Part shown: positions 38,833 through 41,569 of the stretch, piece by piece
How the letters are laid out: each line of letters starts with the position of its first letter
How positions within the stretch are numbered: the stretch's first letter is position 1
NCBI GenBank assembly: GCA_963745075.1
Contig: CAVUWV010000008.1
Span: forward strand, 224,001-288,000
Direction: 5' to 3'
Length of the DNA: 64,000 nt
DNA from: Candidatus Hydrogenedentota bacterium
GTDB taxonomy: Bacteria; Hydrogenedentota; Hydrogenedentia; Hydrogenedentales; SLHB01
Notes under the pieces: model-generated
Told to the model about the DNA's origin: nothing
Database searches by the model: none
The model's input: only the letters and a program-made list of their open reading frames with translations
Position numbers and translations under genes: made by a program

Positions 38833-39876
38833 ATGAAACCACATATCCCCAAGATCCTCGCGGCATGTTCGCTGATACTGAACTCATGCGCGCTGATCTT
38901 TTTCGTAAGGTGGCTCTTTAAGCTAAAAGTTTCTGGCATTGCCGGCCATGTTGGTTTTCAAGTGACGCATCGAGGACCGGTGGAGTGGTTGATAGCGGCT
39001 CTCGTGCTCTCCATCCTTGGCGTACTAACGACGGTTGTCAGCCTGATCGGCCTGACGCGTAAGCGCGGTGCTGCGCACCCGACCCATTCATCATGGCTGC
39101 GCGTGTTGACCGGCCTCGCGCTCCTGGGCGTTACCGCGCCGGCAATTGGTATCATTCCAGGCAGTGCATTGCTGCTGCCAAGTGCACAACGGGAAGCCCG
39201 CCGAGAGGCCGCAATCCACGATCTACCCGAAATAGACCGGCTTCTGAAGGCCCTGAAAGATGAAAATTACGACGTCCGCCGCGACGCAGCGCAAAAGCTC
39301 AGAAGCGAATCGTGGCTGCCCGAAAGCGCAATTCCCACGCTCACGAAGGCAGCGGCGCGCCATGATGGAGAGCCCAGTACTTTGTCCGTCCAAGCGCTGG
39401 CCCATTTCCACAATATCCCGGACGATGTGGCCCCTCGCCTGGTGGGCTTACTGGACACGCCGGAGATAGGCCCCGTCGCGGGAGAGGTTTTGGGCGGGTT
39501 TGGCGAGACGGGTGTTGATGCATTGTTGAAGGCATCAAAATCGCGAGATGCGCAGGTGCGCCAGTCTGCCGCGCACGGCCTGGGAAAATGTTCCAACTTT
39601 AAGGAAGAAATAATCCCGCAGCTCACGGGACTGCTCAGCGATGAGAACGGCTCCGTGAGGGCGGCTGCTGCGATGTCTCTGGGCAGTTGGGGCGTCAAAT
39701 CGAAATCCGCGCTTCCGATACTGCAATCCATGGCAAACGATCCCGACCCCGATGCCCGCAGCGATGCGGGATGGGCCGCCCGTGAAATTGCAAGTCGAAC
39801 CAGATCGCCCAGTCAGCCGTTACCGTTACGCGACGGTGGGCCTTTGGGCCAAACAAAAAGCGCCCCGGCCCAGTAA
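38833..39876 (+). CDS. Membrane protein with HEAT repeats
   Basis: Three TM helices, then HEAT repeats (LKDENYDVRRDAA, DAQVRQSAAHGLG, LSDENGSVRAAAAMSLG). Confidence 0.8.
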   Translation: MKPHIPKILAACSLILNSCALIFFVRWLFKLKVSGIAGHVGFQVTHRGPVEWLIAALVLSILGVLTTVVSLIGLTRKRGAAHPTHSSWLRVLTGLALLGVTAPAIGIIPGSALLLPSAQREARREAAIHDLPEIDRLLKALKDENYDVRRDAAQKLRSESWLPESAIPTLTKAAARHDGEPSTLSVQALAHFHNIPDDVAPRLVGLLDTPEIGPVAGEVLGGFGETGVDALLKASKSRDAQVRQSAAHGLGKCSNFKEEIIPQLTGLLSDENGSVRAAAAMSLGSWGVKSKSALPILQSMANDPDPDARSDAGWAAREIASRTRSPSQPLPLRDGGPLGQTKSAPAQ

Positions 39877-39953
39877 TCACCGGACCGGGGCATATATGCA
39901 TAAACCCCGGCTAAAAAGTACTGCCGCCGAGGGAAGGCATATGGCTCCCCGAG
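39848..39953. repeat. Copy 1 of a 106-bp direct repeat (tRNA 3' end, trailer and terminator)
   Basis: Nearly identical to 40327-40432. Similarity continues through the pseudo-tRNA. Confidence 0.9.
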
Positions 39954-40044
39954 TCACGCCGCACGCGTGATCTGCGACAGACTCGAACTTGCGACCTAGT
40001 GGTTAATCCCGCGTGCCGCGGGACTCTACCAACTGAACTCGGGA
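39942..40044 (-). pseudogene. Pseudo-tRNA-Asn disrupted by two 17-nt palindromes
   Basis: Aligns with 40421-40496, with TCACGCCGCACGCGTGA (39954-39970) inserted and TCCCGCGTGCCGCGGGA (40007-40023) replacing the anticodon-stem 5' arm. The 5' end is degenerate. Confidence 0.85.
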
Positions 40045-40311
40045 TTACTCGGGGTCTCCCCGTGTCACGTCATCGAAATAGCGCCCGATGCCCCGTTTCT
40101 TGATCTTCTTTTCCAACGCCATGGCCTCGGCCCGGGTCGGCAATTCGCATTTCCAGACGAGTTCCCATGGGCCTTCGAAACGCTTTGTAGTCTTGGAGCC
40201 ATGATAGTCAGGATCGTTGTGTTGGGCGATGCGGCGTTCGACATTGTCAGACGAGCCACAGTAGTAACGCCCCGTGGTTGCGCTTCGCAGAATATACGTC
40301 CAGCAAGGCAT
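40045..40311 (-). CDS. Small stand-alone GIY-YIG nuclease (88 aa)
   Basis: WTYILRS...YYCGSSDNVERRIAQHN...KTTKR..GPWELVW...RAEAMALEKKIKK: GIY/YIG-equivalent motifs with the conserved Arg, His and Glu. Confidence 0.92.
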   Translation of the reverse strand: MPCWTYILRSATTGRYYCGSSDNVERRIAQHNDPDYHGSKTTKRFEGPWELVWKCELPTRAEAMALEKKIKKRGIGRYFDDVTRGDPE

Positions 40312-40326
40312 CGGTAGCCCCCTACC

Positions 40327-40432
40327 GCCAAACAAAAAGCGCCCCGGTCCAGGTTGCACCGGACCGGGGCATATATGCATAAACCCCGGCTAAAAGATAC
40401 TGCCGCCGAGGGAAGGCATATGGCTCCCCGAG
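40327..40432. repeat. Copy 2 of the 106-bp direct repeat, containing the tRNA terminator
   Basis: Minus-strand hairpin GCCCCGGTCC...GGACCGGGGC followed by GCTTTTTGTTT. Confidence 0.9.
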
Positions 40433-40496
40433 CAAGACTCGAACTTGCGACCTAGTGGTTAACAGCCACCCGCTCTACCAACTGAGCTATCGGGGA
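40421..40496 (-). tRNA. tRNA-Asn (GTT)
   Basis: TCCCCGATAGCTCAGTTGGTAGAGCGGGTGGCTGTTAACCACTAGGTCGCAAGTTCGAGTCTTGCTCGGGGAGCCA: 76 nt, full cloverleaf, encoded CCA. Confidence 0.97.
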
Positions 40497-41178
40497 TTAA
40501 ACTTGCTTCCGAAATTACTCGGACGGTTAATCCCGCCATGGGCGGGACTCTACCAACTGAGCTATCGGGGATTAAACTTGCTTCCGAAATTACTCGGACG
40601 GTTAATCCCGCCATGGGCGGGACTCTACCAACTGAGCTATCGGGGATTAAACTTGCTTCCGAAATTACTCGGACGGTTAATCCCGCCGTGGGCGGGACTC
40701 TACCAACTGAGCTATCGGGGATTAAACTTGCTTCCGAAATTACTCGGACGGTTAATCCCGCCGTGGGCGGGACTCTACCAACTGAGCTATCGGGGATTAA
40801 ACTTGCTTCCGAAATTACTCGGACGGTTAATCCCGCCGTGGGCGGGACTCTACCAACTGAGCTATCGGGGATTAAACTTGCTTCCGAAATTACTCGGACG
40901 GTTAATCCCGCCGTGGGCGGGACTCTACCAACTGAGCTATCGGGGATTAAACTTGCTTCCGAAATTACTCGGACGGTTAATCCCGCCGTGGGCGGGACTC
41001 TACCAACTGAGCTATCGGGGATTAAACTTGCTTCCGAAATTACTCGGACGGTTAATCCCGCCGTGGGCGGGACTCTACCAACTGAGCTATCGGGGATTAA
41101 ACTTGCTTCCGAAATTACTCGGCCGGTTAATCCCGCCATGGGCGGGACTCTACCAACTGAGCTATCGGGGATTAAACT
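40473..41178. repeat. Tandem array of nine 75-bp units plus a 31-bp partial unit, each containing the 5' 24 nt of tRNA-Asn and a 17-nt palindrome
   Basis: Unit starts at 40473, 40548, 40623 ... 41073, 41148. Unit: CTCTACCAACTGAGCTATCGGGGATTAAACTTGCTTCCGAAATTACTCGGACGGTTAATCCCGCCRTGGGCGGGA. Confidence 0.97.
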
Positions 41179-41248
41179 CGGTCCCGACCCCACGCCACGC
41201 TCTTCAAGCCCGCCAAGCGCCGGACTTTACCAATTGAGCTATCGGGGT
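41179..41248. repeat. Degenerate terminal unit of the array with a different spacer
   Basis: GCCCGCCAAGCGCCGGA (17 nt) followed by CTTTACCAATTGAGCTATCGGGG. Confidence 0.8.
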
Positions 41249-41261
41249 CAGTTTGACTCAA

Positions 41262-41291
41262 AGTCTACCGCATGGCCGGGACTTAATGCAA
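41262..41291 (-). promoter_or_regulatory. Putative sigma-70 promoter for the array and tRNA
   Basis: Minus strand TTGCAT, 18 nt, TAGACT, ending 14 nt before the first tRNA-like 5' end. Confidence 0.6.
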
Positions 41292-41569
41292 GTTTTTGCC
41301 ATGTTTGAGCACCGGGACGGTCGCGTAGCCGGTGATTCGCTCCGTTCACGCGCGGCTCCGCGCCGTCCGTTGAGACCCGGAATCTGCCCTGCGCTCGCGC
41401 GGATACGACCGCCCAACCTGACGCAACACCCGGCGCGAAGGGGGTGGTTGTACAGGACTGATTCTCTCGCCTCGCATTTGATAACCTGACGACCATGAGT
41501 TTGGGGTGGCATTGCGTCTGGTGTCCGGTCGTTGACACGCCACGAGAACCGTTTACAAAGGAATCCCTC

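Follow-up and report, generated by a model that had tools for sequence, protein, structure and literature searches.

The described system closest to the nuclease presented here is the Ssn family. SsnA of N. meningitidis is a 94-amino-acid single-domain GIY-YIG protein that binds the NTS hairpin CGTCATTCCCGCGMAVGCGGGAATCYRG, with the core TCCCGC...GCGGGA, as single-stranded DNA only, and cuts a few nucleotides upstream of it (Chenal et al., Nat Commun 2025, PMC11893778). The substitutions Y6A, Y17A, and E64A abolish cleavage, the base C after the palindrome is key for binding, and Ssn homologues in other phyla are flanked by related hairpins, named SRM; the article text remarks on a layout like that of insertion sequences and leaves the role of Ssn outside Neisseria open (PMC11893778). 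Assignment to the family was based there on cd10448 as the top CDD hit, or on a blastp match to N. meningitidis SsnA (CAX49033.1) with E < 1e-10 and 75% cover, and the published SRM pattern, HGTCWY N0-2 YYVSBRH N0-5 WNVSBRG N0-2 RNCYNB, was looked for at least once within 500 bp on each side of the gene (PMC11893778). An earlier classification of the superfamily, from 2006, placed standalone bacterial proteins in the Slx1 cluster, and connects them to transfer RNA (tRNA) via a fusion to a TrmH-like methyltransferase (PMC1564403). Here, we analyzed a stretch of 64,000 nucleotides from a Candidatus Hydrogenedentota bacterium (GCA_963745075.1, contig CAVUWV010000008.1, positions 224,001 to 288,000; hereafter the window), which holds on its minus strand, from 41291 to 39848, a gene for an 88-amino-acid GIY-YIG nuclease, P0001, nested in the transcription unit of a tRNA-Asn. 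The parts of this cassette are an intact tRNA gene, a small GIY-YIG gene of the Slx1/UPF0213/Ssn-like kind behind a terminator, and partial copies of that tRNA in which a GC-rich palindrome (T-CCCGC...GCGGG-A and variants) takes the place of a stem. We lean, with limited confidence, towards reading the locus as one instance of a cassette that is widespread in the tRNA transcription units of bacteria, selfish and driven by homology, whose nuclease would act at the hairpins and whose array would stem from repeated break repair.

An earlier model reading of the letters, hereafter the original prediction, had claimed a layout of array, tRNA-Asn, terminator, 88-amino-acid GIY-YIG gene, palindrome-broken tRNA copy, and trailer, and all of these parts were found on the minus strand. 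The intact tRNA-Asn(GTT) lies at 40421..40496, scored 70.9 bits in tRNA searches, and has no second Asn gene beside it in the genome, where 46 tRNA genes were found. It is preceded by nine full 75-bp units at 40497..41171, evident from the sequence and from Tandem Repeats Finder (40473-41178, period 75, 9.4 copies, 99% matches). Each unit is composed of tRNA-Asn positions 1-24, the 17-nt palindrome TCCCGCC-CAT/CAC-GGCGGGA, the motif TTAACC, which corresponds to tRNA-Asn positions 35-40, and a 28-nt tail, in which a 19-nt stretch with a small hairpin is followed by 9 nt resembling the native leader. The palindromes are spaced at 40531 + 75n, their loop varies between CAT and CAC from unit to unit, and folding of the unit as DNA gave a z of -3.5. 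The copy number of nine comes from one metagenome assembly. Of 19 public sequencing runs listed for the region, all available as contigs and none of RNA, the best contained 0.21 of the sampled words; in the four that were compared, the contigs were all short and none spanned the array or the duplication. The array member most distant from the tRNA, at ~41172..41247, is degenerate, with a mismatched tRNA-Asn 5' part, a decayed palindrome, and a different tail; this fits array growth at the tRNA-proximal end but also homogenisation of the inner units. Upstream of the array, the predicted promoter could be read as TTGCAT-18 nt-TAGACT at 41262..41291, and three sister genomes have the equivalent arrangement upstream of their units (TTGCAA-18-TACACT), but this site fell below the threshold of a consensus promoter scan, which called 0 sites.

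On the other side of the tRNA, a trailer at 40312..40420, with an intrinsic terminator at 40340-40371 that was called by a terminator scan and is conserved across the genus, leads into the nuclease gene at 40045..40311, supported by its open reading frame (ORF) and Pfam PF01541. Directly after the nuclease stop codon starts the hairpin-substituted tRNA-Asn copy (39942..40044), recognized by sequence comparison, in the order D arm, palindrome 1, positions 35-62, insert with palindrome 2, 3' acceptor strand, and CCA. Palindrome 1, TCCCGCGGCACGCGGGA (40007-40023), forms a 7-bp DNA hairpin of -8.6 kcal/mol and substitutes tRNA-Asn positions 25-34, and palindrome 2, TCACGCGTGCGGCGTGA (39954-39970), lies within a 26-nt insert in the 3' strand of the T stem. 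Neither this copy nor the array units scored as tRNA in the tRNA searches, and no Rfam family besides tRNA matched at the locus. A second trailer with its own terminator (39861-39892) closes the locus at 39848..39941; the repeat, announced as a duplicated 106-bp trailer, is therefore present but measures 94 nt, with 92.6% identity to the first. The two terminator-like hairpins thus stand at 40371-40340 and 39892-39861, and the duplicated segment contains no gene besides that of 88 amino acids.

Compared with sister species (loci L005, L021, L006, and L007), the tRNA trailer of this genome had 95-97% identity over 87 nt, and the terminator stem showed compensatory changes in three loci. In the adjacent nuclease gene, 69 of 264 bases differed and synonymous sites were saturated. 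A conserved AGCCGGGGTTTATGCATATATGCCCCGG was also observed upstream of the terminator, sharing CCCCGG with the terminator stem; this stretch may be an attenuator or a binding site. Two kinds of alternative reading frames were set aside. A 111-amino-acid version of the nuclease ORF, starting at an in-frame ATG upstream (from 40380), was rejected since the frame is broken in a sister genome (L005), and three ORFs of 244-260 amino acids across the array (40455-41308, both strands) were rejected as genes, being read-through of the 75-bp units. These frames encode 25-residue repeats, and gene callers may annotate them as repeat proteins.

P0001 matched the Pfam GIY-YIG family PF01541 with 67.5 bits (cut-off 22.6, E 1.3e-18), the domain covering residues 3-72. 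With 88 amino acids, a single domain, and no DNA-binding domain, it lies within the size range given for Ssn (<150 amino acids, no extra domain). When 15 homologues were aligned, Y6, Y17, G19, R27, H31, and E67 were invariant, and the AlphaFold model based on this alignment had a mean predicted local distance difference test score (pLDDT) of 89.9 and displayed the beta-beta-alpha-beta-alpha order of the GIY-YIG fold. The solved structures closest to the model were UPF0213 BH0048 (1zg2), Slx1, and HIGLE; a sequence profile search against solved structures ranked 1zg2 (E 4.1e-16) and 1ywl (2.4e-12) before Slx1 chains. The NCBIfam model of group I intron endonucleases gave P0001 17.7 bits, the cut-off being 56. 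Within the genus, the ratio of nonsynonymous to synonymous substitutions (dN/dS) was 0.03-0.18 in the five computable pairs, with synonymous sites near or beyond saturation; therefore, the nuclease protein is under purifying selection.

Next, we analyzed the surroundings of nuclease homologues, a test set beforehand for adjacency to tRNA genes, tRNA duplications, and hairpins, and the outcome was strongly positive. Among 61 genomes (the window genome, G000, and its relatives), a homologue was present in 17, with 5/5 in the genus and 13/36 in the family, and a tRNA-Asn was directly upstream in 9 distinct places. Three sister genomes have the full layout, i.e., promoter, units, tRNA-Asn, trailer, nuclease gene, and D arm with TCCCGCGGCACGCGGGA and the rest of the tRNA. 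Sister genomes carry the array unit independently, in one to two or more copies, and the unit tails differ between sister species. A search across one genome per species yielded 80 nuclease loci. An intact same-strand tRNA was found within 350 bp upstream of the gene in 49 of them and within 350 bp downstream in 7; 12 had no intact same-strand tRNA within that distance, several of these retaining hairpin-bearing remnants, and the other 12 were not judgeable, as the contig ended <430 nt upstream. The nuclease gene was thus accompanied by an intact tRNA in 56 of the 68 judgeable loci, and the tRNAs were Asn (41), Pro (12), Ser (2), and Ile (1). A tree of 68 proteins was divided by a single branch (support 100/99) into a set of 51 rows, with tRNA-Asn in 37, none seen in 14, and never a tRNA of another kind, and a set of 17 rows, with Pro in 11, Ser in 2, Ile in 1, none in 3, and never Asn; tRNA identity is therefore a property of the protein clade.

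The recurrence extends across phyla. In most loci, the nuclease frame continues into what is left of a tRNA copy, with the D arm first, then a palindrome in place of part of the tRNA, and then the remaining tRNA sequence. At Pro-type loci, the 17-nt TGGCGCC-N3-GGCGCCA exactly substitutes the 17-nt anticodon arm. The isolate Desulfoferrobacter suflitae has two identical cassette copies after its tRNA-Asn, and the stop codon TAA of the nuclease is there the TAA of the copied anticodon loop. Arrays were also encountered elsewhere: before a tRNA-Pro on an Ignavibacteriota contig stand 7.1 units of 105 bp with 100% identity, each made of tRNA positions 1-26, a palindrome replacing the anticodon arm, positions 44-53, and a 50-nt leader, and a Pirellulaceae contig has 3 units of 68 bp before a tRNA-Asn. 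About 100 nt upstream of the Pirellulaceae array (L095, 1990-2080), a CTCACTC microsatellite followed by a GGCTCCC repeat was observed. On a complete Zixibacteria chromosome, several 'mini-tRNAs' surround the nuclease gene, in which positions 1-24 are joined via a palindrome to the T arm and acceptor strand; in some relatives these are complete and each is followed by a T run. Only some cassette loci have arrays, and many are without an upstream unit.

The hairpins were concentrated at the nuclease genes as well. Counting core-type palindromes (TCCCGC, TCACGC, TGGCGC, and relatives), we found 151 in the 102,911 bases around nuclease genes and 8 in the rest of these loci (245,297 bases). In the window, TCCCGC..GCGGGA palindromes stand on both sides of the nuclease gene. 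Moreover, hairpin and protein matched each other. Loci with a 'KxRGI' protein had TCCCGC in 49 of 67 and TCCGCC in none, and those with an 'SGxGR' protein had TCCGCC in 3 of 5 and TCCCGC in none, a small group of related members; the protein subtype and the hairpin type thus go together. More distant members of the order have the second protein subtype and remnant hairpins TCCGCC...GGCGGA. The left junction was constant across loci, with ...GTAGAG and then the palindrome, and the right junctions were at TT, in TTAACC, TTGGTTCGAG, and TTCGAG, which suggests a defined placement relative to the D arm. The C that followed the palindrome in 101 of 117 distinct hairpin contexts (82 antisense, 19 sense) was discounted as evidence, since most of these share the same D-arm context.

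As a control, 26 tRNA-Asn loci of relatives were analyzed (L113-L138), 22 of them from genomes without a real nuclease homologue. No tRNA fragments were detected at these 22 loci (0/22); the loose hairpin pattern matched there seven times, with a single true palindrome among the matches (in L125, of TCGCGC type and 221 nt downstream). The four remaining loci were from nuclease-carrying genomes: L113 and L134 showed tRNA 5' units with a palindrome, L114 had palindromes and no 5' fragment at the threshold used, and L115 had a 3'-end tRNA remnant alone, with no palindrome by the pattern used. Hairpin-bearing tRNA fragments were, accordingly, restricted to nuclease-carrying genomes. Four proteins encoded next to the cassette in the window had no match at 29 tRNA-Asn loci of relatives (L110-L138), and we infer the cassette boundaries because flanking genes are not common to cassette-free relatives.

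Signs of turnover were seen in the same set of 80 loci, where 16 gave more than one nuclease match. Six contained diverged nuclease pairs with 67-83% nucleotide identity, seven contained copies that were 96-100% identical, including two isolate genomes (L074 and L092) and a case of six tandem copies behind one tRNA-Ser, and the three remaining loci were split matches of a single gene. In three of the diverged pairs (L031, L034, and L038), the tRNA-distal copy was the truncated one, and a nuclease copy in the genome G002 had an internal TGA. The sister genome G003 carries on its contig C52 two cassettes with identical nuclease proteins, 25 kb apart (near 18.8 kb, L031/L006, and near 43.5 kb, L021/L030); one is at the functional tRNA-Asn, and the other stands behind no more than a decayed tRNA 3' end, with a truncated older copy coming after it. 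On contig C8 of G019, a tRNA 5' unit with the hairpin TCCCGCCTGCGGCGGGA lies 277 nt upstream of a tRNA-Asn (L134, near 365.3 kb), and 30 kb away (L011, near 395 kb) a nuclease gene stands with a remnant of a similar hairpin type and without an intact tRNA; this arrangement suggests a rearrangement that may have split a cassette. Many close homologues were on very short contigs, of ~0.5-3 kb, as expected if assemblies break at tRNA-derived repeats, and the cassette is then probably under-represented in draft genomes. The patchy distribution, the tandem and truncated copies, and the clean tRNA-Asn loci of nuclease-free relatives fit a small selfish element.

On these grounds, a mechanism can be proposed. 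The tRNA-derived segments on both flanks would serve as portable homology arms, through which the cassette could be copied into, or recombined with, a tRNA gene, a target nearly identical across species, one intact tRNA always being left. By analogy with Ssn, the nuclease would bind the palindromes when these become single-stranded, i.e., during replication, heavy tRNA transcription, or in incoming DNA, and would cut beside the bound palindrome. Repair of such breaks among the repeated tRNA modules might drive the copying of the cassette, and unequal or misaligned repair could build tandem arrays, such as the nine 5' units here and the tandem nuclease genes elsewhere.

Several observations weigh against this proposal. 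We infer every mechanistic step, namely cleavage, movement, and a circular or single-stranded intermediate. No carrier was found: plasmids gave 3 weak matches (35-37% identity), two of them inspected and both in housekeeping contexts, and phage records and IMG/VR viral contigs gave 0. One plasmid match, on the Sphingomonas plasmid NZ_CP155752.1 (295828-296148, L141), is a distant homologue with 35% identity, with nrdR on one side and, overlapping its end, an RNA methyltransferase gene on the other; together with the reported fusions to a TrmH-like tRNA methyltransferase, this neighbourhood is a further link, of a different kind, of minimal GIY-YIG proteins to tRNA. The sample of 80 loci is biased, having been found with peptide patterns from Asn-type proteins, and the cross-phylum mixing in the tree rests partly on labels of metagenome-assembled genomes, which can be wrong. 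For instance, L029 is titled 'uncultured Nitrospiraceae' yet belongs to the same genus as the window genome, and L053, a locus of the Asn type, bears the title Bathyarchaeia; transfer between phyla should not be argued from the taxon labels of such assemblies. Next to the nuclease gene, an intact and presumably cleavable tRNA persists, and simple homing offers no explanation for this. The published SRM pattern, which includes a 5' HGTCWY flank, had 0 matches in C8:262000-267000, around the locus, 96 in the whole genome, and 1 in the 348,208 bases of the 80 related loci, and no pair of sites on both sides of the gene was found; owing to this near-absence, the hairpins here are not canonical Ssn motifs. 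P0001 is likened to Ssn by its size, tyrosine spacing, and hairpin core, and its best solved relatives are labelled UPF0213. Lastly, the cassette is at the same tRNA in 5/5 genus genomes, with saturated synonymous divergence and strong purifying selection, and this also fits a long-kept useful gene. The original prediction of a minimal selfish element was partly supported: it was favoured by the patchiness, the tandem and truncated copies, and the clean nuclease-free loci, whereas the genus-wide retention, the missing carrier, and the unexplained safety of the intact tRNA speak against a purely selfish reading.

Genus-wide retention also fits the best surviving alternative, a domesticated host function, to which we give a low but real probability. 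The host would keep the nuclease and the hairpins so as to restrict recombination or integration at tRNA-Asn, to guard a favoured integration site, or for DNA repair, and the tRNA fragments would be by-products. Such a role agrees with the constant place of the gene in the genus, the dN/dS of 0.03-0.18 at saturated synonymous sites, and the 95-97% conservation of the trailer over 87 nt, and a precedent is found in Neisseria, where SsnA acts at the host level on transformation, restricting the uptake of NTS-bearing DNA (PMC11893778). Against it stand the presence in only 13 of 36 family genomes, the pseudogenes and truncated copies (the TGA stop in G002 and the truncated partners), and the diverged copies stacked at one tRNA. 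Within a single order, the two protein subtypes have a scattered distribution among genera and families, and loss leaves a clean, working tRNA locus.

Classical double-strand homing, which we regard as somewhat less probable still, would involve a free-standing homing endonuclease that cuts cassette-free tRNA-Asn genes in the region replaced by the palindrome, the palindromes conferring immunity only. T4 SegB offers a model, as a GIY-YIG homing enzyme in a tRNA gene cluster (PMC2330249), and the palindrome indeed always substitutes part of the tRNA copy, with the tRNA kind tracking the protein clade. For copying into alleles that lack the gene, the signs are indirect only, in the form of the patchy presence and of stacked, truncated copies. 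Nevertheless, the nearest characterized single-domain enzymes do not cut double-stranded DNA (PMC11893778), and the protein has 88 amino acids and no DNA-binding domain. The intact tRNA, with the supposed target in it, persists beside the gene, and immunity alone needs no palindromes of conserved sequence with compensatory variants.

In ToxIN loci, a repeat-encoded RNA antitoxin array is placed before a terminator and the toxin gene. The order of promoter, tandem repeats, terminator, and small nuclease gene resembles this, the array is inside the pre-tRNA transcript of an essential tRNA, and complete 'mini-tRNAs' with T runs exist in some relatives, so that the array and remnants might be thought to act as RNAs, e.g., as tRNA mimics or as a repeat-encoded antitoxin of a type III toxin-antitoxin locus. 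We consider this very improbable, as arrays are found at only some cassette loci, many lacking any upstream unit, the unit tails vary between sister species, Rfam matched nothing besides tRNA, and GIY-YIG enzymes are DNases, SsnA not binding RNA (PMC11893778). An assembly artefact or chance similarity is hardly credible: the genome is a metagenome-assembled draft and no compared read or contig spans the 675-bp array, but four sister genomes, assembled independently, and isolate genomes from other phyla show the same layout, the locus sits in a 561,836-base contig, and the units differ at defined positions (CAT vs CAC loops).

The genome is a 6.8-Mb draft of 36 contigs, 89.7% complete. In it, the nuclease gene is single-copy, with no other tblastn match better than E 0.7, and one further GIY-YIG domain is present within a 687-amino-acid frame. 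The six neighbouring ORFs that were scanned encode HEAT repeats, a steroid 5-alpha-reductase domain, a weak GH42 match, a FAD monooxygenase domain, or no domain; none had an integrase or transposase domain, in line with the original prediction that such genes are missing nearby. TCCCGC..GCGGGA palindromes number 42 in the genome, a count made with no shuffle control, and 10 of them are at this locus, the remainder being scattered singles.

Of the 'hypothetical nucleases' of bacteria, small GIY-YIG proteins that stand alone are some of the most common, and Ssn is their sole branch with a known activity. The locus and its relatives tie minimal GIY-YIG nucleases with matching hairpins to specific tRNA genes across phyla. 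If the selfish cassette is the right reading, the setting is that of an element without a recombinase, a parasite of essential tRNA genes that leaves them intact. In many genomes, this would account for odd tRNA fragments, for tandem repeats derived from tRNAs, and for contig breaks at tRNA loci, as well as for the spurious long ORFs across such arrays. The locus and its relatives are also a potential supply of natural nuclease-hairpin pairs of differing specificity for single-stranded-DNA tools. A bolder version, which we put forward tentatively and do not expect to hold in full, is a new class of mobile element: a ~0.4 kb cassette that invades essential tRNA genes without a recombinase and carries a replacement tRNA, its hairpin-bearing pseudo-tRNA segments being both homology arms and the sites recognized by a minimal GIY-YIG nuclease specific for single strands. 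Every cycle of repair induced by the nuclease would then leave a footprint, and polar arrays of tRNA 5' units would accumulate before the tRNA. In that case, a good part of the large orphan Slx1-like/UPF0213/Ssn-like group of bacterial nucleases would be engines of tRNA-gene parasites.

Integrative elements that insert at tRNA genes bring along a copy of the 3' part, by which the gene is restored. The cassette is like them in having an intact tRNA on one side and a displaced partial copy on the other, and in the stacking of successive arrivals. In contrast, no integrase was found in the six neighbouring ORFs, the whole element is ~0.45 kb, and the remnant here includes tRNA 5' parts and engineered-looking hairpin substitutions. 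REPs are dispersed in hundreds of copies, whereas almost a quarter of the genome's palindromes (10/42) are gathered here and the nuclease is single-copy, so that the analogy to REP/RAYT drawn in the original prediction failed with regard to dispersal. The catalytic fold also differs, GIY-YIG here and HUH/Y1 in RAYT, and we know of no covalent strand-transfer chemistry for GIY-YIG enzymes. The likeness to REP/RAYT and IS200/IS605 lies in the combination of a small nuclease and hairpin palindromes recognized as single-stranded DNA (PMC11893778), a recognition that is presumed for P0001. Type III toxin-antitoxin loci differ from the cassette, in which the upstream array is not constant and the protein is not of the ToxN kind. 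Seg homing endonucleases have ~200 amino acids or more. As in the case of T4 SegB, a GIY-YIG gene is found here at tRNA genes and is inherited with its flanks, with patchy and decaying copies (PMC2330249). Unlike the present protein of 88 amino acids, Seg enzymes have a DNA-binding domain and cut the double-stranded DNA of co-infecting phage, and the cassette is in bacterial chromosomes, with palindromes and a duplicated target.

The standalone Slx1-like/UPF0213 proteins (1zg2, 1ywl) are the best sequence and fold match of P0001, and they share with it the minimal domain and the lack of a C-terminal Asn motif; in the consulted passages of the 2006 classification, these orphan proteins are not connected with tRNA genes or hairpins (PMC1564403). 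The likeness to Ssn comprises a single-domain GIY-YIG protein of ~90 amino acids, with Y6, Y17, and E67 in P0001 matching Y6, Y17, and E64 in SsnA, and a gene between short inverted repeats that can fold into hairpins, their core being TCCCGC...GCGGGA, as in NTS. Unlike Ssn, the hairpins are inside copies of one tRNA gene and are not dispersed over the genome, and the gene is nested in a tRNA transcription unit; the word 'tRNA' occurs 0 times in the text of PMC11893778, supplements aside. The remark in the original prediction that no named system with this layout was known stood for this nesting, which that paper's text does not contain, but not for Ssn and the NTS/SRM hairpins, named in 2025 (PMC11893778). 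In the literature searched, with subscription journals thinly covered, no account was found of bacterial tRNA genes with a nested GIY-YIG gene and hairpin-substituted remnants. The pairing of a nuclease with hairpins was, therefore, already known from Ssn, and its nesting at tRNA genes, for which no description was found, would be what is new in the cassette presented here.

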